A program made the translations under genes and the position numbers. The notes below the pieces were generated by a model, which had not been told where the DNA came from, ran no database searches, and worked only from the letters and a program-made list of their open reading frames with translations. A stretch of DNA of 34,622 nt from IMG/VR virus record IMGVR_UViG_3300014655_000006, positions 1-34,622 of that record. One strand, written 5' to 3'. Origin of the DNA: a virus. Its lineage: Duplodnaviria; Caudoviricetes. Below are positions 2,197 through 34,613 of this stretch, piece by piece. How positions within the stretch are numbered: the first letter of the stretch is position 1; every line of letters starts with the position of its first letter.

Positions 2197-2207
2197 CCGA
2201 TAATATA
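2197..2207 (+). promoter_or_regulatory. putative late promoter CCGATAATATA (sigma-28-like -10)
   Basis: GCCGATAATATA; ATG at +14 (2211). Confidence 0.8.
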
Positions 2208-2210
2208 AGC

Positions 2211-2552
2211 ATGTCCTCACCCGAGAATTTTGAGCCTTCTAGCCTGCAGGCCGTACTTGCAACTATAATCGCCGAAGGTCGTTCACGAGACCAGAAGCAA
2301 GATCTTCAGTTCGAATCAATTAAGAACGAGATCAGGGAGAACAAGCGTGTCCTTGAGTCCACGAATGAGCATCTCATCGTCTGGCAGAAGAAGCAGGATG
2401 ACCGGCTCGAGTTGGTCGAGCAGGCGGCCGATGAGCAGCACGGTGCGGTTCGTGTCCTGAAGTGGATAGGCGGGGCGGCCGTGGGGATGTTCAGCATCTT
2501 GGAGGGCTACCGTACATTCTTCGGAGGCAACCCTCCGCTGAACAAGCCGTGA
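2211..2552 (+). CDS. coiled-coil protein with C-terminal membrane helix (holin/XhlA-like candidate)
   Basis: Charged helical region followed by hydrophobic VLKWIGGAAVGMFSILEG; lies behind a late motif. Confidence 0.6.
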   Translation: MSSPENFEPSSLQAVLATIIAEGRSRDQKQDLQFESIKNEIRENKRVLESTNEHLIVWQKKQDDRLELVEQAADEQHGAVRVLKWIGGAAVGMFSILEGYRTFFGGNPPLNKP

Positions 2553-2731
2553 GTTTCAAGTTCCTCAGCTGGCGTATCTCGTTGGGGGTATCTGGGATAA
2601 TGGGGGTTGGGTCTTTTGTGTATGCACATTATCTGCTGAACCCCTCTTGGGTGTGGGATGCCAAGTATGCCCTATTCTCTTTAGTGATAGTGACTTCCAC
2701 ACATCTGGCACACACCAAGGTCTCGAGTTGA
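2549..2731 (+). CDS. small two-TM membrane protein
   Basis: GTGA overlap with the previous stop; 60 aa with two hydrophobic segments. Confidence 0.5.
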   Translation: MSFKFLSWRISLGVSGIMGVGSFVYAHYLLNPSWVWDAKYALFSLVIVTSTHLAHTKVSS

Positions 2732-2737
2732 CCCGTC

Positions 2738-2746
2738 TGGTACAAT
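2738..2746 (+). promoter_or_regulatory. putative host sigma-70 extended -10 promoter (TGnTACAAT)
   Basis: TG-G-TACAAT in the intergenic gap, 6 nt before the GTG at 2753 (leaderless geometry). Confidence 0.5.
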
Positions 2747-2752
2747 CCAGTT

Positions 2753-3154
2753 GTGAAGAGAAAGAAGATCAACAAGTTCTGCTCTGACGTATGGAAGGGA
2801 CGCAAGCGGCCTGCAAGCGGGGACTCTCAGAGGGCCCGTGACTGGGAGATCCTGGCGGGCCTGAACCAGAAGTCCCACTCCTCCCGTGTTATTGTCAGCT
2901 GCCCCGCTTCCTTTATGCTTAAGGCAGACAAGGTTGCGGCATCCAGGGGCATAAGCCGAGCCGAGTTGCTGCGCCGAGTGGGGGAGCCCTCCCCCTACAC
3001 CCTTGGCCAGTCTTTCTGGGATGACGACCAGCTTGTGTGGTGGACTCAGGTGATGCTCAAGGATGAAGAGGTTGGTCTTATCAAGGGCTCCACGGACTTC
3101 GAGTCAAGGGAACGTGCCGAATCTATTATCAGGGACGCCTTTTATCTACCATGA
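2753..3154 (+). CDS. putative ribbon-helix-helix (CopG-like) DNA-binding protein
   Basis: RVIVSCPASFMLKADKVAASRGISRAELLRR fits the RHH strand-helix-G-x-S-R-x-E-helix pattern; basic N-terminus. Confidence 0.6.
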   Translation: MKRKKINKFCSDVWKGRKRPASGDSQRARDWEILAGLNQKSHSSRVIVSCPASFMLKADKVAASRGISRAELLRRVGEPSPYTLGQSFWDDDQLVWWTQVMLKDEEVGLIKGSTDFESRERAESIIRDAFYLP

Positions 3155-3495
3155 ACTTCAAGGAAATACGACACTACCTTCTGAGTCTGGCCCTCATCGA
3201 GTGTGAGGCGGCCAAGGGACACGACTGCGGGGAGTGGGAGGGCAACACCGAGGTGAAGGGGACGGACAAGACGTGGACCTGCGTGTGCGAGTTCACCGTG
3301 CCCGAGGCTGAGGAGTGGCATCGTGTGGGCAACTGGGAGCCTGCCAAGGAGAGGATCCGCCTCAGGGTGGCCTACTGGAACAAGGTGGTGGGGGAGAAGA
3401 GGGTCATCTGCAAGTTGCGCCCCTCCATAGATAACGGAGTCCCGAACGACACGATCAGGATGTACTTCATGGCCGTAGTCCGGCTCACCCCATGA
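3151..3495 (+). CDS. hypothetical protein
   Basis: ATGA overlaps on both sides. Confidence 0.7.
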   Translation: MNFKEIRHYLLSLALIECEAAKGHDCGEWEGNTEVKGTDKTWTCVCEFTVPEAEEWHRVGNWEPAKERIRLRVAYWNKVVGEKRVICKLRPSIDNGVPNDTIRMYFMAVVRLTP

Positions 3496-3923
3496 CCGAC
3501 GAACTCGAGAGGATGGAGGGTTCTCCCATCAAGAAGACCAGGGCTGTGGCCCCTCGCATGAGCCCCAACGAGGAGAAGGAGTATCTGGAGGTTGCCAAGA
3601 AGTACTTGAACAGCCCCGAGGGTCTGATGAAGCTGTCCAAGTTCTACACTCCGGCCCTGTTCAAGCGCCTGCTGGAGCTGACCCAGTCCCCCAACGAGGC
3701 CGTGGCCCTGAACGCCATCAAGGAGCTTCTCCTTCGTGGGCATGGGTCTGTCACGGTTGCCCCTTCTTCCATGGACGTGGTGGTGACGGATGACGACATT
3801 GAGAAGCGTATCGCCAAGGCCAGGTCCAAGGGTGGTCTGACGGTTAACGTTGAGTTTGACGGGCCGCTGGGAGGGCCCTTGGATCCCAATGCGCCTGGAC
3901 CTGTCCAACCGCCTGCCGTTTAA
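3492..3923 (+). CDS. probable terminase small subunit
   Basis: YTPALFKRLLEL...AVALNAIKELLLRGHG helical-hairpin pattern seen in many TerS-like proteins; upstream of TerL. Confidence 0.6.
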   Translation: MTDELERMEGSPIKKTRAVAPRMSPNEEKEYLEVAKKYLNSPEGLMKLSKFYTPALFKRLLELTQSPNEAVALNAIKELLLRGHGSVTVAPSSMDVVVTDDDIEKRIAKARSKGGLTVNVEFDGPLGGPLDPNAPGPVQPPAV

Positions 3924-4239
3924 GGTGGATGTCGGGGGTATCACCATCCAGCCGTTCCGTACCATCTACAAGGATGTCCCTGACAAGCTCGATGTGGATG
4001 GCACCCTGATCACCCAGGTGATGCTGGAGGCCAAGGTCAGGCTCTGGGAGGTCATCTCCCAGCTGCACATGACCAACGACCGATACTACATACAGACCGT
4101 ACACACCGAATATGGACACCGCATCTACGTTTCAGACGACCACAAGGCCCTTCTCGGGGTCTTCTACATCGAGGTAATCTATGGCGACCCAGAAAAGAGC
4201 CCCGAAGCTCCCCCTTCGTCCGGACCCGGTAACGGTTGA
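3889..4239 (+). CDS. hypothetical protein between TerS and TerL
   Basis: Open frame with typical codon usage filling the TerS-TerL gap; start uncertain (ATG 3889 or GTG 3925). Confidence 0.6.
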   Translation: MRLDLSNRLPFKVDVGGITIQPFRTIYKDVPDKLDVDGTLITQVMLEAKVRLWEVISQLHMTNDRYYIQTVHTEYGHRIYVSDDHKALLGVFYIEVIYGDPEKSPEAPPSSGPGNG

Positions 4240-5719: not shown

Positions 5720-5740
5720 CCGAAAAGGGCTGGAAACGCT

Positions 5741-5751
5741 CCGATAATATA
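5741..5751 (+). promoter_or_regulatory. putative late promoter CCGATAATATA
   Basis: Exact motif; ATG of portal at +14 (5755). Confidence 0.8.
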
Positions 5752-5754
5752 GGT

Positions 5755-7392
5755 ATGGCGAAGACCACACCTAAGATAAACCGAGCGGAACTCAAGCGCC
5801 TGGCGGAGGTTATACCCGAGGGCCAGAGGCTGAACGAGCTTAGGGCAGCCATCAAGGACCTTCGCACGGAGTTGTCGGCCATGCCCGAGAAGAGGGAGCA
5901 GATCAGGACCAACGATATGGCCGACCTGGTGGCCGGCCTCGGGGACCAGTTCAGCGGAGTCTACGGAGCCCAGCAGTACTCCAACCAGCCCCGCATGCAG
6001 CCCTACACGCTGTCGGGTTCGAGCAACTTCGCCCAGATCACCCTGGACCGCGTCATGCTCACGGCGGCCTATACCAGCCAGCAGCTAGTGGCCCTGCTCT
6101 GCGACTTGGTGGTTGATGATGCCATGTCGGGAAAGATTGAGTTTGAGACAGACGATGAGCTCGACCCCAAGGAGCTGAGGAGGCTCCAGCAGGAACTCTA
6201 CGCTCCCCGCCTTGGTATTCGTGGTGGTACTACCAACATCATGCAGGAGGAGATTGAGGGTGTGCGAAAGCCCCTCATCACCGACACCGGCCCGTCCCAT
6301 GCCGAGTGCATCAAGTTCTGCAGGAAGATGACCCGTCTCTTTGGCGGTGGGGGACTGATCATCAACACGGATCAGGACTACCGCGAGCCGTTCGACATCG
6401 AGAAGATCCGTCCGGATTCCCCCTTGGAGTTCATCCCGTGCGACCGCTGGGAGATTTCCCTGATGTCGACGAACCTGTTTGGGTACGACAAGACTCCGTT
6501 CAACTACTACGGGGTGCCGGTGAACAGGACCCGCTGCATGATCTTCAAGGGCAAGGAGGCCCCGTCCCTCGTGCGCCAGCGCCTGCAGGGCTATGGCCTC
6601 TCCGTGCTCGAGCCTTGCATCGGCGCCATCAACGCGTTCATGCGTTTCGAGAACCTGATGTTCGAACTTTTGGGGCAGGCCAAAATTGATGTTTACAAGA
6701 TCAACGGCTTTACTACCTTGCTTGGAACACCTTCTGGAACCGCTCAAGCTCAGCAGCGCATCATGATGGCGAACGCCATGAAGTCGTTCACCGACGCCGT
6801 GATGATCGACAAGAACGACGACTACGAGCAGAAGAAGATGACCTTCGCCGGCATGGCCGAGATCTGGAACGAACTCCGCCGCAACCTTGCCGCCTACCTC
6901 TGCATCCCCATGACCAAGTTGTTCGGGGAGAGTGCGGGAGGCTTCAGCTCCGGTGCTGACTCCCTGCAGAACTGGAACGCCACGGTTGAGATTGAGCGCA
7001 CCCAGATCGAGCCGGCCATCCTGCTCGTTGGCAAGCTCCTCTCCAAGTCCATCTTCGGCTATGTGCCGGAGACCCTGCGCGTCAAGTGGACGAGCCTCCG
7101 CTCCCTCGACGGGGTCCAGGAGCAGCAGGTGCTCACGGCCATCCAGACCCGTGCCGTGGAGCTGTTCAACAACCAGGCCCTCACTGGTGAGGAGATGATG
7201 AAGTGGCTCCAGCAGAAGGGTGTGTTCACCATGGACACGGCGGTTGGCCGTGGCGAGGTGGACATCGTTGCCCCTGCGGTGCGTGCCGAGGATACGGCTG
7301 AGAAGTCGGCCATGGCCAAGTCGGCCCCTGGAACGGGCAAGGATTCCCGTGACAAGGAACGCTCAGTCAAGAAGGACGGCCGCAGTGCATAA
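5755..7392 (+). CDS. portal protein (DUF1073/HI1409 type)
   Basis: Follows TerL; RLFGGG, GYGLSVLE, IPMTKLFGESAGGFSSG..D..NW motifs. Start moved to ATG 5755. Confidence 0.9.
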   Translation: MAKTTPKINRAELKRLAEVIPEGQRLNELRAAIKDLRTELSAMPEKREQIRTNDMADLVAGLGDQFSGVYGAQQYSNQPRMQPYTLSGSSNFAQITLDRVMLTAAYTSQQLVALLCDLVVDDAMSGKIEFETDDELDPKELRRLQQELYAPRLGIRGGTTNIMQEEIEGVRKPLITDTGPSHAECIKFCRKMTRLFGGGGLIINTDQDYREPFDIEKIRPDSPLEFIPCDRWEISLMSTNLFGYDKTPFNYYGVPVNRTRCMIFKGKEAPSLVRQRLQGYGLSVLEPCIGAINAFMRFENLMFELLGQAKIDVYKINGFTTLLGTPSGTAQAQQRIMMANAMKSFTDAVMIDKNDDYEQKKMTFAGMAEIWNELRRNLAAYLCIPMTKLFGESAGGFSSGADSLQNWNATVEIERTQIEPAILLVGKLLSKSIFGYVPETLRVKWTSLRSLDGVQEQQVLTAIQTRAVELFNNQALTGEEMMKWLQQKGVFTMDTAVGRGEVDIVAPAVRAEDTAEKSAMAKSAPGTGKDSRDKERSVKKDGRSA

Positions 7393-8327
7393 TGCCCTCC
7401 TACCTACGACTTCGTGACCCCCGCGCCCATGCCGTGGCTTCCCTGAACAGGGAGGTCATGAAGTGGCTGGACGAGGTGGTGTTCGACCACCTGCAGGAGG
7501 ATGAACTCAGGGAGAACGACGTTGACTCCGCCCTGCTGTCCGCTATCCAGAACAGCGACATAGTCTACTCCGAGGGGGTCTTCTCGGGCAAGTTCAGCTC
7601 CAATACCTCCAAGGCTCTCAGGGAGATCGGAGCCTACATCCACCACGGCAAGTGGAGGGTGGATCCTGCCAAGGTCCCCCATGAACTCATCGGGGCCTTT
7701 ACCCTCTCACGGGACAAGGCTGAGGGAAAGGTGACCAACATCATCAGGACCCTTCGTGACATCTCCTCCAACATGGTCCACGCTCCCCTGGGGATAGACC
7801 TGCGCAAGCATGGGGCTGACATCCTTGCGGTCTTGGACATGCAGTTCAACAAGCACCTGGAGGAGGTTCCCCTGTCCCTCCCCAACAAGGACATGGTGCT
7901 GGACCAGTTCGCCAAGGAGATGCACGAGGAGATAGTAACGGCCGCCGTGGATCAGGTGGACAAGCTGGCCGAGAAGCTGGGTACACTCTCTGAGACTGGG
8001 CGCATGGACAGCCTGTTCGCCTACATCCGTGGCGCCTACATCACCTCCCGCAACGCAGTCTCTGTGAAGATGGAGGACAAGATCAACAGGTTCGCCATGG
8101 ACTGTGTGGAGGAGAAGGCAAGGCTAAGCGGGTCAAACAGTTACGTATGGGTGACCTGCCATGATGACAAGGTGCGCCACTCCCATCGGGTCTTGGATGG
8201 CAAGACTTTCCAGTGGGATGACCCTCCCGAGGTGGCTCCAGGCCGCCACTGCCATCCTGGCCAGGATTACAACTGCCGTTGCTGGGCGGTGCCGGTCCTG
8301 CCGTTCGACCCGAAAGCAAATCCTTAG
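7392..8327 (+). CDS. minor head/head morphogenesis protein (SPP1 gp7 / Mu F-like)
   Basis: C-terminal YVWVTCHDDKVRHSH..LDGKTFQWDDPP...HPGQDYNCRC signature; ends in TAG. Confidence 0.9.
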   Translation: MPSYLRLRDPRAHAVASLNREVMKWLDEVVFDHLQEDELRENDVDSALLSAIQNSDIVYSEGVFSGKFSSNTSKALREIGAYIHHGKWRVDPAKVPHELIGAFTLSRDKAEGKVTNIIRTLRDISSNMVHAPLGIDLRKHGADILAVLDMQFNKHLEEVPLSLPNKDMVLDQFAKEMHEEIVTAAVDQVDKLAEKLGTLSETGRMDSLFAYIRGAYITSRNAVSVKMEDKINRFAMDCVEEKARLSGSNSYVWVTCHDDKVRHSHRVLDGKTFQWDDPPEVAPGRHCHPGQDYNCRCWAVPVLPFDPKANP

Positions 8328-8338
8328 CCGATAATATA
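8328..8338 (+). promoter_or_regulatory. putative late promoter CCGATAATATA
   Basis: GCCGATAATATA (G shared with the upstream TAG); ATG at +14 (8342). Confidence 0.8.
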
Positions 8339-8341
8339 AGC

Positions 8342-9487
8342 ATGAGTCTCCACACCATAGACAAGGACATCCGCCTGAATTTCGTGGATGGATCCCGCAC
8401 CCGCTTCAAGATGAGGTTCTTGCAGCCTGGGGTTGTCTCGTACGCCGAGATGGCTGATGGTGGCATCGAGCTCCTGGAGAAGTCCACCATCGACGCCGCC
8501 TGCGACTCCTTCATCGGATGCCCCCTTCAGATCACCCACCCCAACCCCAAGGCCCACGGAAAGGTGGACAAGGTCTACTTCAACTCCGAGGACGGATGGT
8601 ACTGGGCGGAGGGCACGGTTGAGACCGACGAGGCCAGAGTGGCTATCGACAAGGGCTGGAAGCCGTCCTGCGGCTATCGGGTGAACAAGATTGGTCCTGG
8701 AGGTACTTGGCACAATGTGAAGTACAAGTCCGAGATCCAGCAGATTACGTTCGACCACGTGGCCCTGGTAACAAAGCCCCGCTACGAAGATGCGGACGTA
8801 CGCCTTAACTCTATGAAGAACAACGTCATCAAGTGGATCAAGCAACTCGTCATGAGGGAGAACGCAAGCGTTCCCGCAGAGACGAACGTGGAACTGGCAG
8901 GCGACAGCGAGGTTGAAGTCAACGGCAAGTCCGTTCCGCTGAGCGTGCTCATCTCCACCTACGCCCGCGCCAACGAGGGCGTGGAGCCCAAGGCCGAGGA
9001 TGTACCCGCCGTGCTGGTGAAGGAAGAGATGCCCGTCAAGAAGGAGGAGAAGCCCGTGGTCTCCCTGTGTGAGGATGACAAGTCCAAGGAAGGGGGCAAG
9101 GGTGGTCCTGCCAAGGATGTCCAGCCTGGTGGCGAGACGACCGACAACGGTTCCAAGCTCACCCCTGGCGAAGGCACTGTCAGCTCCCTCCCCCTGACCG
9201 ACTCTCCCGAGAAGGAGGCTGCCTCCAAGTCAGCCGATGGCAAGGACGAGGTGAAGGTGGAGAAGATCGTCATCAACACGGCTCCCGTCAACACCCGCAA
9301 CATCATCGACACCCCGATCGTACAGGTGCCGAAGGCCGAGCGCGTGCTGGACGACAAGGCACAGGGCCTCAAGCATTTCAACGACTTGGCCACTGCCAAG
9401 GATCGCTTCAACGAGGCCATCAAGGGCCAGTCGGTTGACAGTTCATCCAAGGAGCGCCAGCTGGAGCTGGGTCGCCTCCTGTTCTAA
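8342..9487 (+). CDS. prohead protease plus scaffold (DUF2213 type)
   Basis: SFIGCPLQITHP, SCGY, DHVALVTKPRY motifs followed by a charged low-complexity tail. Start moved to ATG 8342. Confidence 0.85.
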   Translation: MSLHTIDKDIRLNFVDGSRTRFKMRFLQPGVVSYAEMADGGIELLEKSTIDAACDSFIGCPLQITHPNPKAHGKVDKVYFNSEDGWYWAEGTVETDEARVAIDKGWKPSCGYRVNKIGPGGTWHNVKYKSEIQQITFDHVALVTKPRYEDADVRLNSMKNNVIKWIKQLVMRENASVPAETNVELAGDSEVEVNGKSVPLSVLISTYARANEGVEPKAEDVPAVLVKEEMPVKKEEKPVVSLCEDDKSKEGGKGGPAKDVQPGGETTDNGSKLTPGEGTVSSLPLTDSPEKEAASKSADGKDEVKVEKIVINTAPVNTRNIIDTPIVQVPKAERVLDDKAQGLKHFNDLATAKDRFNEAIKGQSVDSSSKERQLELGRLLF

Positions 9488-9512
9488 GCCGGTCCCTTTT
9501 TCAAACCCTCTG

Positions 9513-9523
9513 CCGATAATATA
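9513..9523 (+). promoter_or_regulatory. putative late promoter CCGATAATATA (cement/capsid unit)
   Basis: GCCGATAATATA; A at +14 (9527) followed by a 10-nt leader to ATG 9537. Confidence 0.8.
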
Positions 9524-9536
9524 GGAAGAACACACC

Positions 9537-10031
9537 ATGAATACCCTCAACGTTAACCAGTTCGACATGTCAGTGATGCTGGCCCAGGCCACCAACTTGA
9601 CGAACCCGAACGTCATCGCCGTCCGCACGAACCCCTCCTCGGCGCAGGTCTCCTTCCCGTCGGGCACAGCGGTCAAGCTGATCGCCGGCCAGTCCGATGA
9701 GCGCCTCGTCGATGCCTGCACAGGTCCGACGGACCCGAGCTTCCTCGGAGTCATCGTCTACAACTCGCGCAAGGCCACCACGGCTCCTGGCGATCGCAGG
9801 GATGTGTTCGCCCCCGGCTCGACCCTCTATCTAGAGGCCGCTGGTGCGATTCCCCGCGGCTCGTTCCTTTCCTACGTTGCCCCGACCTACTCGGGCAGCA
9901 CGCAGCTGACGGACCCGCAGGTCCAGGTCGCCACGACTGGCCAGACCGTTATCGGTCAGGCTTACGACCAGGCCAACGGCGCCAACGCAATGCTTCAGGT
10001 GACGATCGTTTATCCCTTCGTCAGCCCGTAA
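9537..10031 (+). CDS. capsid cement/decoration protein
   Basis: 164-aa beta-rich protein between protease and major capsid, the usual position. Confidence 0.7.
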   Translation: MNTLNVNQFDMSVMLAQATNLTNPNVIAVRTNPSSAQVSFPSGTAVKLIAGQSDERLVDACTGPTDPSFLGVIVYNSRKATTAPGDRRDVFAPGSTLYLEAAGAIPRGSFLSYVAPTYSGSTQLTDPQVQVATTGQTVIGQAYDQANGANAMLQVTIVYPFVSP

Positions 10032-10055
10032 CCCTCAACAAGGAAACAACTTACC

Positions 10056-11183
10056 ATGAAGTCCCTCCGCCTTATCCCCACCGGCAACAAGCGCCTCAAC
10101 GAAGTGACGAAGATCACTGAGGACGAAGTTCAGCCTTTCTACTTCGACGACACTCGGGGCAAGTCCCTCTGGGCCGACGCCTCCAGGACGAAGCCCGACT
10201 ACCGTCTGAACAGCCCTGGCGACACGCCGGAGGCCAGCACGGGCTACCAGATTGCCATCGACACCTTGACGTATATCGTCCGCACTGTCACGGCGCAGAA
10301 GTTCTACGAGGTCAACCCGTCCGACTACCTGCCGGTCATGGTGGGTGAGGGTTCGTTCGCCAACGACTTCCTGAACAACCTGACGTTCTCCAATGCTGCC
10401 GACTTCGAGTCCGGCATCATCAACAGCGCCAGCTCGAACGCCCGCCTCGACACCGTCGAGACCGCCGTCGCTTCGATCACGACCGAGAACATTTACTGGG
10501 CGAAGGCGCTCGAGTACTCGATCAACGACGTGCAGCGCGCCCTGTTCGCCAACAACTGGGATCTCATCGAGTCCAAGCACAAGGCGATGAAGAAGAACTT
10601 CGACCTGGGCATCCAAAAGATCGCCTTCCTCGGTTCACGCACGGACACGGCCGACATCCAGGGCCTCCTGAACAACACGAAGGTCAACATCGTGGCCAGC
10701 CCGAGCTACCTGAACGTCCCGATCTCTTCCATGACGGCGGCACAGTTCAGCACGTTCGTCGGCACGGTCATCGGCGCCTACGTCACCAACGCCAACGCAA
10801 CGGCGATTCCGGACACGTTCCTGATCCCGCTGTCGGACTACCTGGGCCTTGCGGCTCCGGTGAGCTCGGACTTCCCCTTCAACTCCAAGTTGGAGTACCT
10901 GAGGAAGGCGTTCGTGGAGATCACGGGCAACGACAAGTTCGCCATCAAGAAGCTGGCCTACGCTGACGCCACGTACAACGCGGCCTACGGCATCAACCAG
11001 CAGGTCTACATCCTCTACCGCAACGACAGCGACTCCTTCCACATGAGGGTTCCGCAGCCGTACACGGTCCTCCAGCCCGGCACGTCCAACAACTACCAGT
11101 GGCAGCAGGTCTGCACTGCGCAGTTCACGGGGAACATCATCCTCCGCCCGCTCGAGCAGCTCCAGTTCCGGTTCACTCTGTAA
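10056..11183 (+). CDS. major capsid protein (DUF2184-like, HK97 fold)
   Basis: 375 aa, strong C-ending codon bias, IQKIAFLG, GLLNN and PDTFLIP motifs; followed by a terminator. Confidence 0.9.
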   Translation: MKSLRLIPTGNKRLNEVTKITEDEVQPFYFDDTRGKSLWADASRTKPDYRLNSPGDTPEASTGYQIAIDTLTYIVRTVTAQKFYEVNPSDYLPVMVGEGSFANDFLNNLTFSNAADFESGIINSASSNARLDTVETAVASITTENIYWAKALEYSINDVQRALFANNWDLIESKHKAMKKNFDLGIQKIAFLGSRTDTADIQGLLNNTKVNIVASPSYLNVPISSMTAAQFSTFVGTVIGAYVTNANATAIPDTFLIPLSDYLGLAAPVSSDFPFNSKLEYLRKAFVEITGNDKFAIKKLAYADATYNAAYGINQQVYILYRNDSDSFHMRVPQPYTVLQPGTSNNYQWQQVCTAQFTGNIILRPLEQLQFRFTL

Positions 11184-11244
11184 CCGGCAGCACGAGTCCA
11201 AGTAACGCATAGTATCACATCCAAATGGGGGTAGGCCCCCGCTA

Positions 11245-11273
11245 GACGGCTCTCCGAAAGGGGAGCCGTTTTT
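11245..11273 (+). terminator. rho-independent terminator after the capsid gene
   Basis: GACGGCTCTCC-GAAA-GGGGAGCCGTT stem with a GNRA loop and T run; small GGGGG-TAGG-CCCCC hairpin at 11227-11240 just upstream. Confidence 0.85.
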
Positions 11274-11290
11274 GCTTAGGTTTCGAAATG

Positions 11291-11301
11291 CCGATACTAT
11301 A
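11291..11301 (+). promoter_or_regulatory. putative late promoter, variant CCGATACTATA
   Basis: GCCGATACTATA just after the terminator; ATG at +14 (11305). Confidence 0.75.
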
Positions 11302-11304
11302 GTT

Positions 11305-11517
11305 ATGAACCCACTACTCGTTCTCGGTCTGGTTGCTCTCGTCGCGGCTGCGGTCGCTGTTCTCGTTGTCAAGTTCCTCCCCAACTCTTCACTGGCGAAG
11401 CGGCTGGAAGCCCTTGAGGCCAAGGCAGTTTCAACGGGGAAGGCGGACGTGGCCAAGGTTGAGACGGTCGTGAAGACCGACGAGGCCAAGGTCGAGGCCG
11501 TAGCCAAGAAGCTCTAA
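11305..11517 (+). CDS. small protein with an N-terminal membrane anchor
   Basis: MNPLLVLGLVALVAAAVAVLVVKF followed by a Lys/Ala/Glu-rich helix; start moved to ATG 11305. Confidence 0.75.
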   Translation: MNPLLVLGLVALVAAAVAVLVVKFLPNSSLAKRLEALEAKAVSTGKADVAKVETVVKTDEAKVEAVAKKL

Positions 11518-11521
11518 TCCC

Positions 11522-11896: not shown

Positions 11897-11901
11897 CCTC
11901 C

Positions 11902-13839: not shown

Positions 13840-13859
13840 CCCCGATTTGCCTTCCGTGT

Positions 13860-13870
13860 CCGATAATATA
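13860..13870 (+). promoter_or_regulatory. putative late promoter CCGATAATATA (sheath/tube unit)
   Basis: Exact motif; A at +14 (13874) followed by an 11-nt leader to ATG 13885. Confidence 0.8.
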
Positions 13871-13884
13871 GAGAGACCCATACC

Positions 13885-15135: not shown

Positions 15136-15144
15136 TAGAACACC

Positions 15145-15612: not shown

Positions 15613-15617
15613 TTTCA

Positions 15618-15673
15618 GTGCTGGGCATCAGGGAAAGGCCGGGGCGGTAACCCCGGCTTTTCTATGCCCACAC
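15618..15673 (+). terminator. long hairpin/terminator after the tail tube
   Basis: Core GGAAAGGCCGGGG-CGGTAA-CCCCGGCTTTTCT extended by TGGGCAT/ATGCCCA and GTG/CAC. Confidence 0.75.
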
Positions 15674-15681
15674 ACCAGAAT

Positions 15682-15692
15682 CCGATACTGTA
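15682..15692 (+). promoter_or_regulatory. putative late promoter, variant CCGATACTGTA
   Basis: Just after the hairpin; ATG at +14 (15696). Confidence 0.7.
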
Positions 15693-15695
15693 TGT

Positions 15696-16076
15696 ATGAC
15701 CATCAAGAAACTGGCATCTGGACGTGAGGTAGGACTGGGGGACATCCCCCTCGGCGAGTGCGAGGATGTGCTGCGCCTTATTGCAAACGAACTGCTCAGC
15801 GTGGGCATAGACATCAACTTGGAGGGGGGACTTAAGTCCCTTATGACTCAAGATGTTAACACCATCAAGAACATCCTTCTCAAGCTGGTTGGATCCAAGC
15901 CCATCTGGGCGGCAGCCGAGCAGCTCATGCTCCGCTGCAAGTACAACGGTGCGGCCATCAAGCCTGACACGTTCGAGCCCAAGGAGAACCGCAAGGACAA
16001 GATCCCCACCATGATGGCGGTACTCAAGCACGCCCTGGGGGATTTTATCGAAGGCCTCGACTCACCCTCAGCGTAA
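15696..16076 (+). CDS. tail assembly chaperone (gpG-like)
   Basis: Between tube and tape measure; contains G GAT TTT near the 3' end. Confidence 0.8.
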   Translation: MTIKKLASGREVGLGDIPLGECEDVLRLIANELLSVGIDINLEGGLKSLMTQDVNTIKNILLKLVGSKPIWAAAEQLMLRCKYNGAAIKPDTFEPKENRKDKIPTMMAVLKHALGDFIEGLDSPSA

Positions 16077-21267: not shown

Positions 21268-21278
21268 CCGATAATATA
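21268..21278 (+). promoter_or_regulatory. putative late promoter CCGATAATATA
   Basis: Exact motif; ATG at +14 (21282). Confidence 0.8.
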
Positions 21279-21281
21279 GGT

Positions 21282-21713
21282 ATGGCAGAGAACATGATCA
21301 TCAGGGCACTCGTCCCGCGCTGGCTCCCCAACGCGGGGGACTGGACGTTCGGCCAGGGCATGTCCAACTTCCTGACGGGCGATGCGGCCGTGGCCGAGGC
21401 CATACAGGTGGCGCTGCAGATCTTCCGTGGGGAGGTCTTCTGGTACACCAACTACGGGGTGGACTGGAACAACATCCTTGGGGCGGTTGGCGCCCAGCGT
21501 GTGATGAACATCCTTGTCGTGCAGGCGCGCGAGGTGATACTGGGTGTTCAGGGCGTGGTGTCCGTCAACAACCTGTACGCCGAGGTGGACCCCATCACCC
21601 GCCAGGTCACCCTCCAGTACACCGTCACCACTGAGAACGGGGGCGTCGTCAACTTCACCAGCGCCCCGGACGGCCTGGTGCTGCCCGTGTACTCCAACCC
21701 CATCCCACTATGA
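21282..21713 (+). CDS. baseplate wedge/sheath initiator (gp25/gpW-like)
   Basis: GDWTFGQG..NFL, LQIFRGEVFW...GVDW..ILG, ILGVQGV motifs; start moved to ATG 21282. Confidence 0.8.
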   Translation: MAENMIIRALVPRWLPNAGDWTFGQGMSNFLTGDAAVAEAIQVALQIFRGEVFWYTNYGVDWNNILGAVGAQRVMNILVVQAREVILGVQGVVSVNNLYAEVDPITRQVTLQYTVTTENGGVVNFTSAPDGLVLPVYSNPIPL

Positions 21714-22993: not shown

Positions 22994-22997
22994 GGCC

Positions 22998-24032: not shown

Positions 24033-24045
24033 TTCGGCCTCGCAG

Positions 24046-24056
24046 CCGATAATATA
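24046..24056 (+). promoter_or_regulatory. putative late promoter CCGATAATATA
   Basis: GCCGATAATATA; ATG at +14 (24060). Confidence 0.8.
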
Positions 24057-24059
24057 GAT

Positions 24060-27000
24060 ATGTCGCTGTACCCCATTCCGAACATCCCCAACACCCGTCT
24101 GCTGCCCCTGGGGGCGGACTACATGGAGATCGGTCAGTCCGGCGTGGCCGGCATCAGCGGGTCCTTCCGCATACTGGCCAACGAGTTCGTGGTGGCCGTG
24201 CAGAACATCGGGGTCCTTGAGAGCCTGCCCGTCACGGGCGTAACCGAGGGCACGCTCGTCCTCGCAGAGGGTGCGGTAAGCATGGGGGACGGCAACGGCG
24301 CCCTGTACTACTACAACCCGTACTCTTCGGCCACGCCCGATGGTGTCAACATCCTTGCCCCTGCAGTGGGATCGGGCCGCTGGCTTATCGTCAAGCTGCT
24401 CGCAAGCGGCGCCACGGGCCCAGTGGGTGCCACGGGCCCAACCGGAGTTCAGGGAGTCACTGGTGTACAGGGAGTTACGGGAGCCTCGGGCCCAAGCGGC
24501 CCAGCGGGCAGCACGGGCCCGGCGGGCAGCACGGGGGCCTCGGGCCCCAGCGGGCCGTCAGGTCCGTCGGGCGGCGTGGGCGCAGCCGGCTCAGCCACCT
24601 TCCTGCAGTCCAACTTCACTCCCCCCAACACCATCGGCGGCAGCGGTACAATGAACGTGTACAGCTCCTCCATCTTCGGGGTGGGGCAGGAGATCTTCGT
24701 CTTCAACTCGGGCTACTACACGGTCACCGCCGTCAGCTCGGGCTTCGTGACGGCCACCCAGCTCACCGTCGTCGCCACACCGTCCTACTGCCCAGCAGGA
24801 ACATCCGTGCTCGTGGCGGGATCGCAGGGACCCGTGGGAGCCCCAGGCACTGGCAACAACGGCTATGGCATCACGATGCCGTACACCTTCCCCCTCACCA
24901 CCACGATAGGCGGCACCAGCCCCATCTCCTTTGAGTCGGGTGGCGAGAACCTCTCCGTTGGCCAGTGGGTCTGGGTCCCAGGCTCGGGCTACTGGACGGT
25001 CATCAGCATCTTCGCAGGCATCTATACCCTCGAGCTCCAGTACACGGTCACGAGCCCCATCAGCACGCTGCCGGCCAACTCGATCATCAGCATCGCCGGC
25101 CCGCAGGGCATCCAGGGGATTTCCGGCCCGACGGGGGCCACCGGCCCGGCCGGAGTCAACGGGTTCTCCACCTCCACCGCCTCCTCGACTCCCCCCTCGA
25201 CCTCAGGAAACTCCTTCACGATCAGCGTCGACTCGTCCTCCCTGTTCAACCTGAACGAGACGGTCTACGTCCTCGGCAGCGGTTACTACCATGTGACCGG
25301 CATCGCCACTGGCTCCCTGACCCTGACGCTTGACCTTGCCCTCTACACGCCAAGCACCCTCCCCATCGGCACCACCGTCCAGTCCTGCGGACCGCAGGGC
25401 GTGACCGGAGTGACCGGCCCCTCGGGGGCAACCGGAGCGGCCTCGACCATCCCTGGTGCCACGGGCGCCACGGGCCCTAGCGGAGCCAACGGGCTGAACG
25501 GGTATGCATTCTTGACGAGCATTGTCAGTACGCCATCCACCATCGGTACAATCATCTCAGGGGTAACTGTAACCAATCTCGCCATCTTTCCGGTAGGCAC
25601 CACCGTCCTCCTCGGGGGCAGCGGCTACTACCTCGTCACCAGCAACAGCGGCGGCACCCTAAGCCTCCAGCTCCAGTACATCATCAGCTCTGGCCTGTTC
25701 ACCCCAGGCACGCTGATCATGGTGAGCGGACCCGTGGGAGTCACGGGCGCCTCGGGTGCCACGGGCGCCTCGGGGGCTGCGGGCAGCAACGGCAGCAACG
25801 GTGCCACGGGCGCCACGGGCCCGAGCGGAGTTGCGGGCGGAGTCGGTGCCACGGGCGCCACGGGGGCCACGGGCGCCTCGGGGGCTGGGGTTCTTGCAAC
25901 CCTTCCCAACCTGGCGGCCCTCCGTGCCCTCAGCGGCATGACGGACGGTCAGACCGCCATCACCCAGGGATACTCCCTGCACGATGACGGCGGCGGGTCC
26001 ACCTGGTACTACAAGGCCACGGACAACTACTCGCAGGACAACGGAGGCACCCTCATTGCCGGCAACACTCAGACGTGGTCCGACCTGGTCATCTGGACCG
26101 CAGGACAGGTCGTGGTGGTCAACAACGTCATCGCCGCCCAGTACTACAACATCGCCACCGGCGGCATCGTCACCGCACCCGGCACGTACCTCTGCGTCAC
26201 GACCCACAACCCAGGCACCTACGGCAACTCCTTCGCAGCGGCCCTCACGGCCGGCGTGTGGACCACCACCCAGGTCACCGGCTACTGGCACAAGGATGAT
26301 GTCGTCACCTCACAGAGCGCCGGCGCCGGAGTGGGGACCTACCCTCCCGCCAAGATGAACATCTTGTGGTTCGGGGCGAATAACAACACTGGAGGCCCCG
26401 CCTCGAGCGGATACCCCGACACCACTCCCGTCATGTACGATGCGTGGTTCGCATGCCACATCGCCAACGGATCCTTCGGGGGAGGCGCCATCTATGTCCC
26501 TGCAGGATCGTACAGGATGTGGACGCAGTTCCTGGTCACCGCACCCAACAACGACATCACCATCGTCGGCGACGGGTCGGCCGCATCCAACCTCATCTAC
26601 TGCTTCCAGGTGTCCGGACAGAACTCCCTCCTGAACCTGACCAGCTCCTTCACCATCGACATCCACAACGTCGGCATCACCGTAGCCAATGTCACCGGCA
26701 CTCTGGTGGGGTCCACCAACATCATCTCCGTCACCGCCCCCAATATCGTCATGGACGACGTGGTGGGATCGGGACTGGCAGGCAACTTCCTCAACGTCAA
26801 CGCAGGGGGAGGGCAGGGAGTCACCATATCGAACATCTTCACCGCCAACGGTGGAACAGGCGCCTACACGGACGGATCGCTTCCCGCCCCGCAGCTGTAC
26901 ATCCAGAACGCCGGCGGCACCATCATGAACGTCAACATGAACACGAGCAACTGCCCTGCGCTCGTGATCACCGGCTGCGATGCTCTCAAGATGAGCACCG

Positions 27001-28697: not shown

Positions 28698-28711
28698 GAT
28701 TGGCTCCTAAG

Positions 28712-28722
28712 CCGATAATATA
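28712..28722 (+). promoter_or_regulatory. putative late promoter CCGATAATATA
   Basis: GCCGATAATATA; A at +14 (28726, in-frame ATC), ATG at 28729. Confidence 0.8.
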
Positions 28723-28728
28723 GGTATC

Positions 28729-31700
28729 ATGCTGAACCTGTATGTCATGGGGTCCAATCCGGTCACGGCCTCGCTCATCGCGTCGCCCACGGACACATCT
28801 CCTGTACAGATCCCCCCGTACTGCTTCGGGGATCAGATCGAGGTCATCTGCCAGTTCTTCATCCCTCCCTCGGTCAACAACATAGGGGTCCCCACCCTTG
28901 AGCCGTGGAACGGAGACTCCGCCTATCAGGTCCAGCTGTTCTTCAACGACCAGGTGCTTGGCACCATGGCCGGCCTCACCCTGACCCCCGACCCGGTCAA
29001 CCAGTGGTTCAAGGGCTACCTCAACCGCGGCACGGAGCCCCTGCAGAGCCTCTTCCTGAACAACGGGAACGTCCCTGCAAGCCTCTCGGCGGCCATCATC
29101 GTCACCAAGCTGACGCCAAACACCTACCAGCGCGCCTACAGCATCGGGCCGGCCACCATCCTCTTCAACGTCGTCCCTGGCCTTGTACCGGTGCCCCTGG
29201 GGCTTCAGTACTACGATGAGGCTCAGGTTGACGCGCTCATCGCGGCCATTCCTGCGGGAGCTACGGGACCCACTGGTGCCACGGGAGTTACGGGAGCCAC
29301 TGGTGCCTCGGGCCCGCAGGGCAACACCGTTATCGGGCCAACGGGCCCGCAGGGACAGCAGGGACCTACGGGACCATCTGGCTTGCAAGGAGTTACGGGC
29401 GTCACGGGCGTTACCGGAGTTACGGGCCCCAGCGGCGCTGCGGGGGTTACGGGAGCCTCTGGTGCGCAGGGCGTTACCGGAGTTACGGGCCCGAGCGGAG
29501 TCGCCGGAGTTACGGGCGTCACGGGCCCGAGCGGAGTCGCCGGAGTTACGGGCGTCACGGGCCCGAGCGGAGTCGCCGGAGTTACGGGACCATCTGGTGC
29601 GCAGGGAGTTACAGGTCCAACGGGCCCTGCGGGAGTTGCGGGCGCCACGGGCCCAAGCGGAGCCACGGGAGTTTCCGGAGCCTCGGGCAGCCAGGGCGTG
29701 ACCGGTGTCACGGGAGTTACGGGACCATCTGGTGCAGAGGGAGTTACGGGCCCAACGGGCCCTGCGGGAGTTGCGGGCGCCACGGGAGTTACGGGAGCCA
29801 CGGGCGCCTCGGGGGTCACCCCCACCGGCACGCCCATCTACCAGAGCAGCTGGGACCCCTCCACGAACACGCCAACCCTACCCCTGACCCCTTCGGGCAG
29901 CATGGCGGGTGACTACTGGGTAGCGAGCGCCAGCGGCACCTTTGCCGGCCTGACGTTCAACCCGATGGACTGGATCATCGACAACGGCGGAGTCTGGGGC
30001 AAGGTCGCAGGCAACACCGTTGCAGGGCCTACCGGAGTTACGGGCCCGAGCGGCGCGTCGGGTGCCGTGGGAGCCACGGGACCATCTGGTGTACAAGGAG
30101 TTACAGGCCCGAGCGGGGTTGCCGGAGCCACGGGCCCGAGCGGGGTTGCGGGCCCGAGCGGCGCGTCGGGTGCCGTGGGAGCCACGGGACCATCTGGTGC
30201 CCAAGGAGTTACGGGCCCTAGCGGAGCCAACGGCAGCAACGGTGCCACGGGTGCCACGGGACCGTCTGGTGTACAAGGAGTTACGGGCGCCACGGGCCCG
30301 AGCGGAGCGTCGGGTTCCTTGGGGCCACTGTCCGACAGTTCTGTTACCTTCACGGCCGCCGCAGTATCCACGAGCAACATCTCCTCCTTCCCCCCTACTA
30401 CACAGATCTCTGTGGATGGGCATTACACACAGACGGGAGACGTCATCCTGTTGGAGGGTCAGACAACCACATCCCAGAATGGTCTCTGGCTGGTAGGGCC
30501 TGCTACATGGACACGCCCCTCCTTCTTCCCCAGCGGGGGAACGATGAACAACAACATCAACGTCACCATCTGTACCGGAACCGTTTACCTGGGGTCTATG
30601 TGGACCATGTACGGACCTGGAACCGTCATTGATACGAACCCCATCACTGTAACCCTTCTTCAGCCCCCCACCCCAGCCCTTCTTAACAGCGGAGTACCCT
30701 ACTCTGCCCTAGTAGTTGCTACCTCCAACGTGGCTACCCTATCGGGAAGTGTCGCCATAGATGGTGTAACAACCTACGGAGGGTCCTTGGTCCTCTTGAC
30801 GGCACAGACCACCACCTCTCAGAACGGCCTGTGGCAGACCACCTACCCCCTTCCCCTTGGGGCTTGGACTAGGCCATCCTGCTTCCCCTCGGGCGGCCGC
30901 ATCACCACCAGCTACATCAACGTATCCATCTCCGCTGGTACGGTGTACGAAGGAAGTACGTGGGCCATAAGTGGTGTGATCATCGACACTAACCCCATCA
31001 CCGTTACGCAAATTGCCCAGTCACAGGGTCCAACGGGTGCTACGGGACCGTCTGGTGCCCAAGGAGTTACGGGCCCGAGCGGCGCTGCCGGAGCCACGGG
31101 CCCAACCGGAGTTACGGGCCCGCAGGGAAACACCGTCATCGGGCCAACGGGCCCGTCGGGCGGAGTGGGCGCCACGGGCCCAGTGGGTGCCACGGGAAGT
31201 GTGGGAGCCTCTGGTGCGCAGGGAGTTACGGGGGCCTCGGGCCCAAGCGGCGTCCAGGGCGTTACCGGAGCCACGGGCCCGACGGGCTCGGCCTCGGTCA
31301 TTCCTGGCGCCACGGGAGCCACGGGAGCTACGGGACCGTCTGGTGCCCAAGGAGTTACGGGACCACAGGGCCCAACGGGCTCAACCAACGGCATGGTAAC
31401 TGTCAAGGTAGCCTCCCTCACCAATCAAACTCTGTCCGGTACTCCCACTATCAACGGAGTGACCACTGCCGCGGGTGACCTTGTCCTACTCTTGGCCCAG
31501 ACAAACGCCGTACAGAACGGCGTATGGCAGGTTTTCTCCAGCGGGTGGATAAGGACCGCAGTGTTCGCTACCGGCATGGTTCTTCAGGTCCAGGGCTTTG
31601 GTGGAATTGTTCAGCAGGGGGTGTACGGCGGCATCTACTACGGTGCCGTATGGTATATCGGCGGGGGGGCGGGCTCTACGGTCACCGTGGATACAGACCC

Positions 31701-32259
31701 TCTCACCATTACACTTTCCTACCAGATAGGACAGGTAGGTGCCACGGGCCCAAGCGGTGCCACGGGACCGTCTGGTGTACAAGGAGTTACGGGAGCCACG
31801 GGCCCAAGCGGTGCCACGGGCCCCACAGGGGCGGGAGTCACGGGAGTTACGGGAGTTACGGGAGCCTCGGGCCCGACAGGACCAAGCGGAGCCAACTACT
31901 CGGGCTCCACGGTCAACGCCTTCACGGCGCAGCAGTACTTCACTGAGTACGCCCTTACCGATGCCAGCCCCATCGCGTGGAACTTGGACGTGGCCCAAAG
32001 CGCCTACGTCCTCCTGACCTCGGCCGTCGGAGCCACGCGTCAGCTGCAGAACCCCACCAACATGCAGGCTGGGGCCACCTACATGTTGCGTGTGAAGCAG
32101 TCCTCCACCGGATCCAACGCACTGACCTACGGCACCGCCTACCTCTTCCCCGGAGGGATCAAGCCTGTCCTCTCGACGGCCAACAACGCACTTGATGTAC
32201 TGTCGTTTTACTGCGACGGAACCAACATGTACGGAACTGCACTGCAGACCTTCTCATAA
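28729..32259 (+). CDS. collagen-like fibre protein
   Basis: Long G-X-T/G-P-S tracts separated by three ..IDG....GD.VLL..QT...QNG.W modules and a C-terminal LTDASPIAW...PTN...G..Y.L..KQ..TG beta domain. Confidence 0.8.
29485..29588 (+). repeat. 36-bp perfect tandem repeat, about 2.9 copies
   Basis: ACGGGCCCGAGCGGAGTCGCCGGAGTTACGGGCGTC at 29485, 29521 and partially at 29557. Confidence 0.9.
30041..30199 (+). repeat. 51-bp exact direct repeat, 108 bp apart
   Basis: CGGGCCCGAGCGGCGCGTCGGGTGCCGTGGGAGCCACGGGACCATCTGGTG at 30041-30091 and 30149-30199. Confidence 0.9.
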
Positions 32260-32260
32260 G

Positions 32261-33034: not shown

Positions 33035-33035
33035 G

Positions 33036-33046
33036 CCGATACTATT
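33036..33046 (+). promoter_or_regulatory. putative late promoter, variant CCGATACTATT
   Basis: GCCGATACTATT; ATG at +14 (33050). Confidence 0.75.
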
Positions 33047-33049
33047 ACC

Positions 33050-33871
33050 ATGGCAACACGCCCCACACGCATCACCCAGAAGATCTTCGCAGCAGCCTCC
33101 GCAGCCGCCCCCACGGGGCTGATGGGGGAGTTCGGCAGCGCCGTGGTTGTCCCTGGAGGCACCTTCTCGGGAGACCCTGCTGCCATCATGGGCACGGCGG
33201 CATGGAACACGGGCCTGCAGGCGGCGTTTGTACCCACCTCCCAGAACAGCCCGTTCTGGCAGGACTGGCAGGGCGCCTGGTTCTCCATCACCCGCCAGCT
33301 GGACTACACCATGCGCTTCGGCATCCCCGAGTACGACCCTGGCACCACCTACTTCATCGGGTGCATCTGCAACACCCTTGGGTTCTCCGCAAGCCAGATC
33401 ACGGGCGGCCTGTGGGTCTGCGTCAACGACAACGGCGGCACGGGCCAGTCAGGCAACACGCCCGCCGTTGGATCAGGTTACTGGGCATCGCTGGTGAGCC
33501 CCCAGAACAACAGCTTCCAGTGCAAGGCGTTCGGCAACTTCTACGGCAACCCCGCCTCGGGTGGTCCAGGATGGCGCACCGAGGGCAACTTCCTCACCTC
33601 CATCACGCGCTCCGGTCCTGGCCTGTACACGGTCTACTTCGGCCTGAACAACGTGCCGGCCCAGTTCTCCGATGTCAACTATTCGGCCACCTGTTCGGCG
33701 GGGGATGCGGAGAACGCGTACCTTGTGCGCGAGGTCAGCAGGACCCGCTCGTCCATCACCTACCAGGTGAACGGCGGAGCTGGGTTCAACCACAACAACA
33801 ACTCCACCCCCGTTGACTCGGACAGCGTGAACATCCAGGTGTTCAGCAACGAAAGTTTGTCGCTGATTTAA
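33050..33871 (+). CDS. short baseplate-attached tail fibre protein
   Basis: RITQKIFA, FGS, PFWQDWQG..FSITRQLDY....GIPEYD..TTYFIG N-terminal attachment pattern; C-terminal SITRSGPGLYTVYF domain. Confidence 0.7.
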   Translation: MATRPTRITQKIFAAASAAAPTGLMGEFGSAVVVPGGTFSGDPAAIMGTAAWNTGLQAAFVPTSQNSPFWQDWQGAWFSITRQLDYTMRFGIPEYDPGTTYFIGCICNTLGFSASQITGGLWVCVNDNGGTGQSGNTPAVGSGYWASLVSPQNNSFQCKAFGNFYGNPASGGPGWRTEGNFLTSITRSGPGLYTVYFGLNNVPAQFSDVNYSATCSAGDAENAYLVREVSRTRSSITYQVNGGAGFNHNNNSTPVDSDSVNIQVFSNESLSLI

Positions 33872-33900
33872 GTGACAGACAAGAGGCTGCGGAGTATAAC
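33872..33900 (+). promoter_or_regulatory. putative host sigma-70 promoter of the sigma gene
   Basis: GTGACA (33872-33877) - 17 nt - TATAAC (33895-33900), each 5/6 to consensus; ATG 7 nt downstream. Confidence 0.65.
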
Positions 33901-33907
33901 CTGGCCC

Positions 33908-34597
33908 ATGCCTAGTTTTTGTGTCGGGCTGCCCCGTGGTTACAAGCGCTGCGTGCCCACTTACAAGTTGCAGAAGAAGAGGATAAAGAACCTGCGTGGA
34001 CTCACGCTGAAGGAACTCCTCGTTGACGAGCGCTTCAAGAAGAAGATCGTCCGCCTGTGCTACCAGTTCAGCGCCAAGACATGCGGCGCCGTGGACGTGG
34101 AGGAGTTCAAGAGCATAGCCAACTACCAGACGGGGCTGCTCATCCACAAGTACGACAGGAAGCACGGGATGAAGCTCGAACATTTCCTGTACCAGCGCAT
34201 CAAGTGCCGGTTCCTGGACTACCTGAGGGACATAGACCCCATGAGCCGGACGGCCAGGAAGAACAACGAGGAGCCCATCTATATCGTCCCCCTGGAGCCC
34301 CACCACGACACGGAGCAGGAGGTCTACGAGAACAAGGATGTCACGGACCTCCTGAGGGTCATGATGGATGTCCTCAACCCAGTCGAGAGGACCGTCATCA
34401 CGACCAAGCACCTGCGGGGCATGAAATTCCCAGAGGCCGCACGCCAGTGCAACATACCAGTCAAGAAGTTCCGAAAGATGCACGCGCTGGCCATGGAGAG
34501 GATGAGGGCCCGCTACGAGCAGCTTCAGGAGGACAAGGGGCAGCGTTCAGAGGACACCGAGCGACTCTTAAAGGTCGCTCGCACCATGTTCGGATAG
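33908..34597 (+). CDS. RNA polymerase sigma factor, FliA/WhiG (sigma-28)-like
   Basis: Region 2: YDRKHGMKLEHFLYQRIKCRFLDYLRDIDPMSRTARK resembles FliA FD..RG.KF.TYA..RIRGA.LDELR..DW.PRS.R; region 4: LNPVERTVI....LRGMKFPEAARQCNIP....RKMHALAMERMR. Start ATG 33908 preferred to GTG 33872. Confidence 0.85.
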   Translation: MPSFCVGLPRGYKRCVPTYKLQKKRIKNLRGLTLKELLVDERFKKKIVRLCYQFSAKTCGAVDVEEFKSIANYQTGLLIHKYDRKHGMKLEHFLYQRIKCRFLDYLRDIDPMSRTARKNNEEPIYIVPLEPHHDTEQEVYENKDVTDLLRVMMDVLNPVERTVITTKHLRGMKFPEAARQCNIPVKKFRKMHALAMERMRARYEQLQEDKGQRSEDTERLLKVARTMFG

Positions 34598-34602
34598 GTT
34601 AT

Positions 34603-34613
34603 CCGATACTTAG
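34603..34613 (+). promoter_or_regulatory. putative late promoter, variant CCGATACTTAG
   Basis: After the sigma stop; ATG at +14 (34617) begins a gene running off the window. Confidence 0.6.

Follow-up and report, generated by a model that had tools for sequence, protein, structure and literature searches.

Organization of the locus

The window analysed here, 34,622 bases long, is the whole of virus record IMGVR_UViG_3300014655_000006, a linear contig (61% G+C, ~38% complete) from an uncultured phage in wetland metagenome runs. Its + strand encodes a myovirus morphogenesis module (terminase, portal, protease, capsid, sheath, tape measure, baseplate and two collagen-repeat tail fibres), after which stands a gene for a sigma factor, P0001. 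We examined this sigma factor together with a short motif, CCGATA[A/C]T, which recurs on the same strand and probably marks late promoters of the phage. The sigma gene and the predicted promoters are:

33908..34597, +, sigma factor gene (P0001, 229 aa), FliA-like region 2 and start of region 3, diverged region 4
33872..33908, +, putative host-type promoter of the sigma gene, GTGACA-N17-TATAAC-N7-ATG, would be leaderless
2197..2211, +, predicted promoter, +1 at the A of the ATG of a 113-aa gene, just 3' of a tRNA gene
4080..4094, +, predicted promoter inside the open reading frame (ORF) 3850-4239, +1 A 87 nt ahead of the terminase large subunit ATG (4181)
5741..5755, +, predicted promoter, leaderless, portal gene
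8328..8342, +, predicted promoter, leaderless, head maturation protease gene
9513..9527, +, predicted promoter, 10-nt leader, 164-aa gene then major capsid gene
11291..11305, +, predicted promoter, leaderless, 70-aa hydrophobic gene then head/neck genes
13860..13874, +, predicted promoter, 11-nt leader, tail sheath gene
15682..15696, +, predicted promoter, leaderless, 126-aa gene ahead of the tape measure gene
21268..21282, +, predicted promoter, leaderless, baseplate wedge gene
24046..24060, +, predicted promoter, leaderless, 1545-aa collagen-repeat tail fibre gene
28712..28726, +, predicted promoter, 3-nt leader, 1176-aa collagen-repeat tail fibre gene
33036..33050, +, predicted promoter, leaderless, 273-aa gene; read-through would reach the sigma gene too
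34603..34617, +, predicted promoter, leaderless, gene truncated by the contig end

The motif and its upstream sequence

The sequence CCGATAATATA occurs in the window at exactly the eight positions given by an earlier, sequence-only reading of this DNA (2197, 5741, 8328, 9513, 13860, 21268, 24046 and 28712), all on the + strand, against a mean of 0.00 in 100 shuffles. The relaxed form CCGATA[A/C]T has 13 matches, 13 on the + strand and 0 on the - strand (shuffles: mean 0.77, maximum 4). These include the variants reported earlier at 11291, 15682, 33036 and 34603, and the whole-genome scan adds a site that had been missed, at 4080. The six CCGATA hexamers on the - strand all lack the extension. 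In a weight-matrix scan of both strands the 13 sites scored 15.8-27.9 bits and everything else 9.7 or less. CCGATA is present at 13/13 sites, followed by A at 8/13 and preceded by G at 7/13; seven G-preceded sites were also the earlier count, made on 12 sites. Head, tail or baseplate genes stand downstream of most sites. The claim that the sites lie at gene boundaries is borne out for most of them, but not for 4080, which falls within an ORF.

No shared motif is visible in the upstream columns (12/13 sites aligned, the last being too close to the end). Exact FliA/WhiG -35 boxes (TAAA, T(A/C)AA or CTCA at a spacing of 15-17 nt) were found at 0/13 sites, and neither four sigma-28 -35 scorings nor three shared-k-mer tests reached significance (P 0.10-1.0), in agreement with the sequence-only reading, which had seen no shared -35 box. 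Among five motif tests, the one for TTGACA reached P 0.03 before any correction, with a 5/6 match at site 13860. Of the two elements that define the sigma-28 promoter class, the sites thus carry the -10 element GCCGATAA ending at -8, and lack the -35 element at 15-17 nt.

Predicted transcription starts

The base 14 nt past the first C of the motif is A in 13/13 sites. In 9/13 it is the A of an ATG (binomial p 5e-15), and at the remaining four sites it is also A in 4/4 (p 0.002). This fixed distance between motif and start codon had been overlooked in the sequence-only reading. A pyrimidine precedes the +14 A at 11/13 sites, and a pyrimidine directly before +1 is the usual start-site pattern. 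The ATG at the +14 A is the first in-frame ATG in 8/8 complete ORFs.

In Pseudomonas aeruginosa the sigma-28 box of fliC is numbered (-15)GCCGATAA(-8) (PMC12784957). Applied to the phage sites, this numbering places +1 on the +14 A. Because that predicted +1 coincides with the start-codon A at nine of the 13 sites, the majority of messages should lack a leader; at three sites the predicted leader is 3, 10 or 11 nt long, and at 4080 it is 87 nt.

A shortened FliA-like sigma factor

The gene at 33908-34597 had been called a sigma factor with a region 2 resembling FliA/WhiG, and both statements hold. Its product is a 229-aa sigma-70-family protein that passes the superfamily cut-off, and the best profile score of region 2 is with FliA/WhiG (region 2 alone: 42.5 bits on TIGR02479, compared with 22.9 for SigI, the best non-FliA model); no named ECF (extracytoplasmic function) family is among the region 2 matches. 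The full protein scores 45.3 bits on TIGR02479 (FliA_WhiG), over profile positions 5-83 only, against a curated cut-off of 189.6. The best three matches in a PDB sequence search were 6PFJ and 6PFV, the top two, both Streptomyces venezuelae WhiG complexes, plus Escherichia coli FliA (6PMI).

P0001 aligns with E. coli FliA free of gaps over E. coli residues 58-98, with 8/14 DNA-contact positions identical. The shared residues are D60, Q73, R74, L80, D81, R84, D87, R91 and R94; R58, R76 and R95 are replaced by K, Y70 by F, and R98 by E. All four readers of the -10 and extended -10 sequence are kept, D81, R84, D87 and R91 of E. coli FliA corresponding to D104, R107, D110 and R114 of P0001. The complete set of four occurs in 19/20 FliA rows and in 0/16 other sigmas (a count that leaves out G026_L147, whose score was not measured).

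The -35 readers, by contrast with those of the -10 box, are lost. P. aeruginosa S224 and Q228, which read the -35 element and have been called essential (PMC12784957), correspond to S219 and Q223 in E. coli and to K186 and K190 in P0001 (numbering transferred from P. aeruginosa to E. coli by residue identity, with an offset of 6 in region 2 and 5 in region 4); Q223 is retained in 20/20 FliA rows. This loss matches promoters that have no -35 box. The linker is also reduced: between the counterparts of E. coli positions 98 and 175, P0001 has 21 residues against 77 in FliA, and ~55 residues of domain 3 are gone. Group 3 sigmas have sigma2, sigma3 and sigma4 (PMC4598750), whereas P0001 departs from this FliA/WhiG layout and has the two-domain arrangement, sigma2 plus sigma4, of ECF (group 4) sigmas. 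An AlphaFold model (predicted local distance difference test 81.7, predicted template modelling score 0.44) places one short helix (residues 114-118) between region 2 and region 4. P0001 also has a C-terminal helix that is absent from FliA and conserved in its three close relatives (approximately residues 205-229; 34520-34594, + strand), in which D209, G211, D216, L220, L221 and A224 are invariant among the four.

Relatives and lineage of the sigma factor

Of the 53 matches returned by a search of 1.84 billion representatives, one was P0001, three were real relatives (50, 39 and 31% identity; their contigs measure at most 9.2 kb) and 49 were distant proteins, for 42 of which the best model was FliA/WhiG. 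Seven short sigmas (P0001 with P0003, P0004, P0005, P0010, P0022 and P0027) form one clade, supported at 100/99 in a 65-row tree and at 91/85 in a mixture-model tree. Within it, P0003 retains the D, R, D, R set, whereas P0005 has Y in place of R91. In the 65-row tree this clade falls in a FliA-containing group at 82/87. Overall, FliA ancestry of P0001 is neither shown nor rejected by the trees, and the FliA-like assignment rests on profiles and residues. Of the proposal that the phage captured a flagellar-class sigma, the FliA-like region 2, confirmed by its profile, is what survived the profile and phylogeny check; the protein fell below the family cut-off, most of domain 3 is gone, and no placement is rejected by the tree. 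Structure does not assign a lineage either: Foldseek with the AlphaFold model returned sigmas of all groups, and the ESM Atlas likewise.

Close relatives of the sigma with DNA context were found neither in the viral contigs, cultured phages and E. coli genomes searched, nor by searching with the capsid protein alone; a plasmid search with the sigma gave weak ECF-type matches only. A tblastn search with a FliA protein matched 129 phage records, the best annotated being Bacillus phage sigmas. Four proteins from three of these phages were compared; domain 3 is retained in them and the FliA residue set is missing, although two of the phages carry the annotation 'sigma 28 subunit' or 'fliA'. The gene annotated fliA in Bacillus phage Goe20 (L279:223-1254) has 0/4 of the FliA -10-region residues, and that annotation looks wrong. 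Other FliA-like proteins (P0047, P0037, P0017, P0031, P0034 and P0048) are missing much of domain 3 and keep an SRVSQ-type -35 helix. Loss of domain 3 seems to have occurred more than once.

Proposed mechanism

We place at roughly three in four the probability that the 13 sites serve this myovirus as late promoters and that the phage's own shortened FliA-like sigma reads them, recognising no element but the -10 box. The start-site geometry and the residue map both add support to the promoter reading of the motif, and the phage sigma likely drives these promoters. A host sigma would transcribe the sigma gene first, from GTGACA-N17-TATAAC, and the product would then bind host core RNA polymerase and read (G)CCGATA through D104, R107, D110 and R114. 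The AT-rich ATATA that follows the box would ease melting where a -35 anchor is missing. Read-through from site 33036 would raise the level of the sigma itself, as has been proposed for phage 7-11.

Several observations weigh against this interpretation. Region 4 alone gives weak matches to ECF-type models only and to no FliA model, and E. coli FliA R98, whose counterpart has been called vital for the open complex (PMC12784957), is E121 in P0001. In the mixture-model tree, built on 32 of the 65 rows, the clade joins ECF at 74/76, and approximately unbiased tests rejected no placement (p 0.52 with FliA, 0.11 with SigF/G). We found no second phage that has both this sigma and readable DNA, and the available capsid-gene relatives are distant, partly redundant and mostly fragmentary, so that co-occurrence amounts to joint absence. 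As the genome is ~38% complete, another regulator could lie outside the window. Two RNA-library contigs start at 9482 and 9514, upstream of the predicted +1 at 9527; these starts are compatible with read-through and lend no support to the predicted +1.

More tentatively, and at somewhat less than even odds, phages may have turned a flagellar sigma into a minimal late-gene switch, dropping domain 3 and the -35 readers, keeping the readers of GCCGATA, adding a C-terminal helix, relying on a lone -10 box, escaping FlgM/RsiG and running a mostly leaderless programme, with P0001 and its six relatives as an undescribed clade. FlgM contacts all three domains of FliA (PMC12784957, PMC4598750); escape from FlgM is speculation. 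The -35 half appears to have disappeared jointly from the sigma and from its promoters, and the system is thus a natural test case for how an alternative sigma can function with nothing but a -10 box. If the proposal is true, the flagellar lineage would join the few sigmas known to serve phages as late switches, and leaderless expression would gain a sigma-promoter pair that is both compact and orthogonal. The predicted +1 is exact at 13 sites and thus directly testable.

Alternative explanations

The same mechanism could operate with a sigma that is not of FliA descent throughout, either chimeric, with a FliA region 2 joined to an ECF region 4, or convergent from within the ECF lineage. We consider this unlikely. 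The short linker and two-domain layout, the ECF-type matches of region 4, the mixture-model tree, which does not split P0001 from ECF, and the inability of Foldseek to tell sigma groups apart all count in its favour; against it stand the unbroken alignment and contact identities over E. coli 58-98, the four diagnostic residues, which occur in no ECF row, and the existence of FliA proteins short in domain 3, such as P0047, which is above the FliA cut-off. A somewhat less probable explanation leaves the promoters to host sigma-28 (FliA/WhiG), perhaps with a phage activator, and gives the phage sigma another role, for instance redirecting host genes. The box is a near-perfect sigma-28 -10 element with host geometry, and a likeness to the sporulation sigmas of the host is known for some Bacillus phage sigmas (10.1101/2021.11.12.468384). 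However, host sigma-28 requires a -35 element (PMC12784957), which is present at 0/13 sites, and exactly the -35 readers are lost from the phage sigma; FlgM, moreover, locks up FliA (PMC4598750), which would make it an unreliable late switch.

A further candidate is the housekeeping sigma working with a phage factor: TAATAT/TACTAT would be a variant -10 and CCGA a determinant upstream of it, along the lines suggested for Thermus phage Lalka27a. This appears improbable. TANNNT lies within 11/13 sites, and Lalka27a does have variant -10 late promoters with mostly leaderless transcripts, but these start six nucleotides past TANNNT (10.64898/2026.04.20.719267). In the window 4 nt separate TANNNT from the conserved A. 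With the Lalka27a spacing, transcription at the nine leaderless sites would begin within the ATG or beyond it, and only 28712 fits; the two host-type promoters of the window itself (2741 and 33895) have a gap of 6-7 nt. Least probable of all, and only just behind, is a role other than promoter for the near-palindrome CCGATA-A-TATAGG beside start codons, either as the operator of a dimeric protein or as a signal for translation. Although four sites match their own reverse complement at 10/13 positions, the other nine match at 4-8/13 only, conservation is confined to one side, and nothing mirrors the invariant +14 A. This A is kept, too, at the four sites where the ATG lies elsewhere, where a translation signal would not need it.

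Comparison with known systems

Single-box late promoters read by a phage sigma are an established strategy, and a phage sigma with a single-box motif before virion genes, as in the gp55 and gp36 systems, is what we find here. T4 gp55 is likewise a phage sigma that serves virion genes from one short -10 motif, TATAAATA (-13 to -6), but its box and sigma lineage differ, and T4 requires gp33 and the sliding clamp gp45 (PMC1524935); no gp33- or gp45-type genes were recognised in this partial genome. The phiEco32 gp36 and phage 7-11 sigmas are small phage proteins that use one element near -11.5 for middle and late genes, with the sigma gene proposed to be under both host and phage promoters; they differ in the box (AATGTA), in the ECF annotation and in the aid of gp79 (PMC12276001, PMC4331800). 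No significant alignment was obtained between gp36 and P0001 (E 3.9).

The alternative sigmas SPO1 gp28 and gp34 and the sporulation-like sigmas of Bacillus phages are also phage-encoded; SPO1 gp28 falls in a mixed cluster that includes SigD, and in the available part of that survey FliA and WhiG go unmentioned (10.1101/2021.11.12.468384). As predicted for the window, Thermus phages YS40 and Lalka27a have many -10-type late promoters that abut start codons, whereas Lalka27a has no sigma gene and uses TANNNT boxes with a 6-nt gap (10.64898/2026.04.20.719267). With the bacterial sigma-28 factors FliA, SigD and WhiG (TIGR02479; PDB 6PMI, 9WSF, 6PFJ) and the class-3 flagellar promoters (PMC12784957, PMC12871210) the phage system has in common the -10 box (G)CCGATA(A/C), the spacing from that box to the predicted +1, and, in region 2.4/3.0, the residues D81, R84, D87 and R91. 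Bacterial sigma-28 requires both promoter boxes (PMC12784957); the phage system has no -35 box, its -35 readers are replaced, domain 3 is mostly deleted and a C-terminal helix is extra. The phage sigma also differs in being phage-encoded, in its predicted virion-gene targets, in the mostly leaderless messages predicted for them and in lying far under the family cut-off.

We found no paper describing a phage FliA-type sigma that drives CCGATA late promoters in the literature searched, from which subscription papers were mostly absent, and the available portions of PMC7824862, PMC8244752, PMC10452541, PMC12340547, PMC12871210, PMC4598750 and PMC3950348 hold no precedent. The sequence-only reading had likened the system in concept to T4 gp55 and knew of no characterised example; the literature searched likewise gave none of the FliA type, but the general strategy is known from T4 and phiEco32.

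The motif and the sigma in other genomes and RNA libraries

Relatives of the capsid gene (25 viral loci and one genome locus, 40-54% capsid identity) were searched for both elements. CCGATA-N8-ATG on the capsid strand occurs in 0/26, and the sigma in 0/25 of the virus records; the sigmas of the bacterial bin, G026, are ordinary ones encoded on contigs other than that of the capsid gene. Five whole relative records, two of them complete, gave no sigma-70-family match, and stray pattern matches did not exceed one per record. That both elements are absent together is consistent with the model. The co-occurrence check proposed earlier was answered in part: no second genome with both elements was found among those searched, and distant relatives lacking the sigma also lack the motif.

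A motif scan of viral contigs returned at least 119 loci, and the 80 listed each have one match. In metagenomes it returned at least 120, and among the matches listed only the window's own contig shares genes with the window. None of 13 metagenome loci looked at closely has a repeated motif, and the five with listed ORFs look bacterial. One locus, L134, has three CCGATA copies within a local repeat, not ahead of start codons.

Contigs from RNA libraries of two studies cover much of the window (X2, 27/30 and 28/30 bins; X3, 15/30 and 11/30), although such contigs cannot show starts, strand or level, and the libraries may contain DNA. The runs were found via the 8300-15200 stretch, and the high depth over the capsid gene was therefore not used as evidence. 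No RNA contig covers 34062-34622. A contig end at 11218 in both studies is a weak hint only.

Neighbouring features

Further features of the + strand are:

551..566, +, weak and doubtful motif variant, CCGATG-N9-ATG, before a metallophosphoesterase gene (score 7.3, compared with 15.8-27.9)
2735-2755, +, putative host-type extended -10 promoter, TG-G-TACAAT, 6 nt ahead of a GTG start
11246..11273, +, GC hairpin with T run, predicted by folding to be terminator-like, 3' of the capsid gene and before site 11291
15638..15661, +, GC hairpin with T run, likewise terminator-like by folding, before site 15682

Both terminator-like hairpins come from the fold and are not listed by a simple terminator scan. 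The closeness of the promoter at 2735-2755 to its GTG suggests that leaderless mRNA is in use in the host. Shine-Dalgarno-like words accompany few of the window's genes.

Adjoining site 2197 is a tRNA gene (2105-2180, +) with a CUA (amber) anticodon and an imperfect acceptor stem, labelled tRNA-Pyl by ARAGORN. Genome-wide recoding of TAG was considered and rejected: genes are open under table 11, and 3/39 genes stop at TAG. The sigma gene is one of these three, and TAG read-through would carry the sigma across site 34603.

The two very long collagen-repeat tail fibre genes (24060-32259, +) contain the 11-mer GGAGTTACGGG repeated 20 times, and a DNA run differs from the window at three positions near 26501-26507. 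At 332-364, a short stretch is matched on its own by contigs of runs X1 and X3, with identical foreign flanks on both sides; it is possibly a shared element, an integration-type site or a CRISPR spacer.

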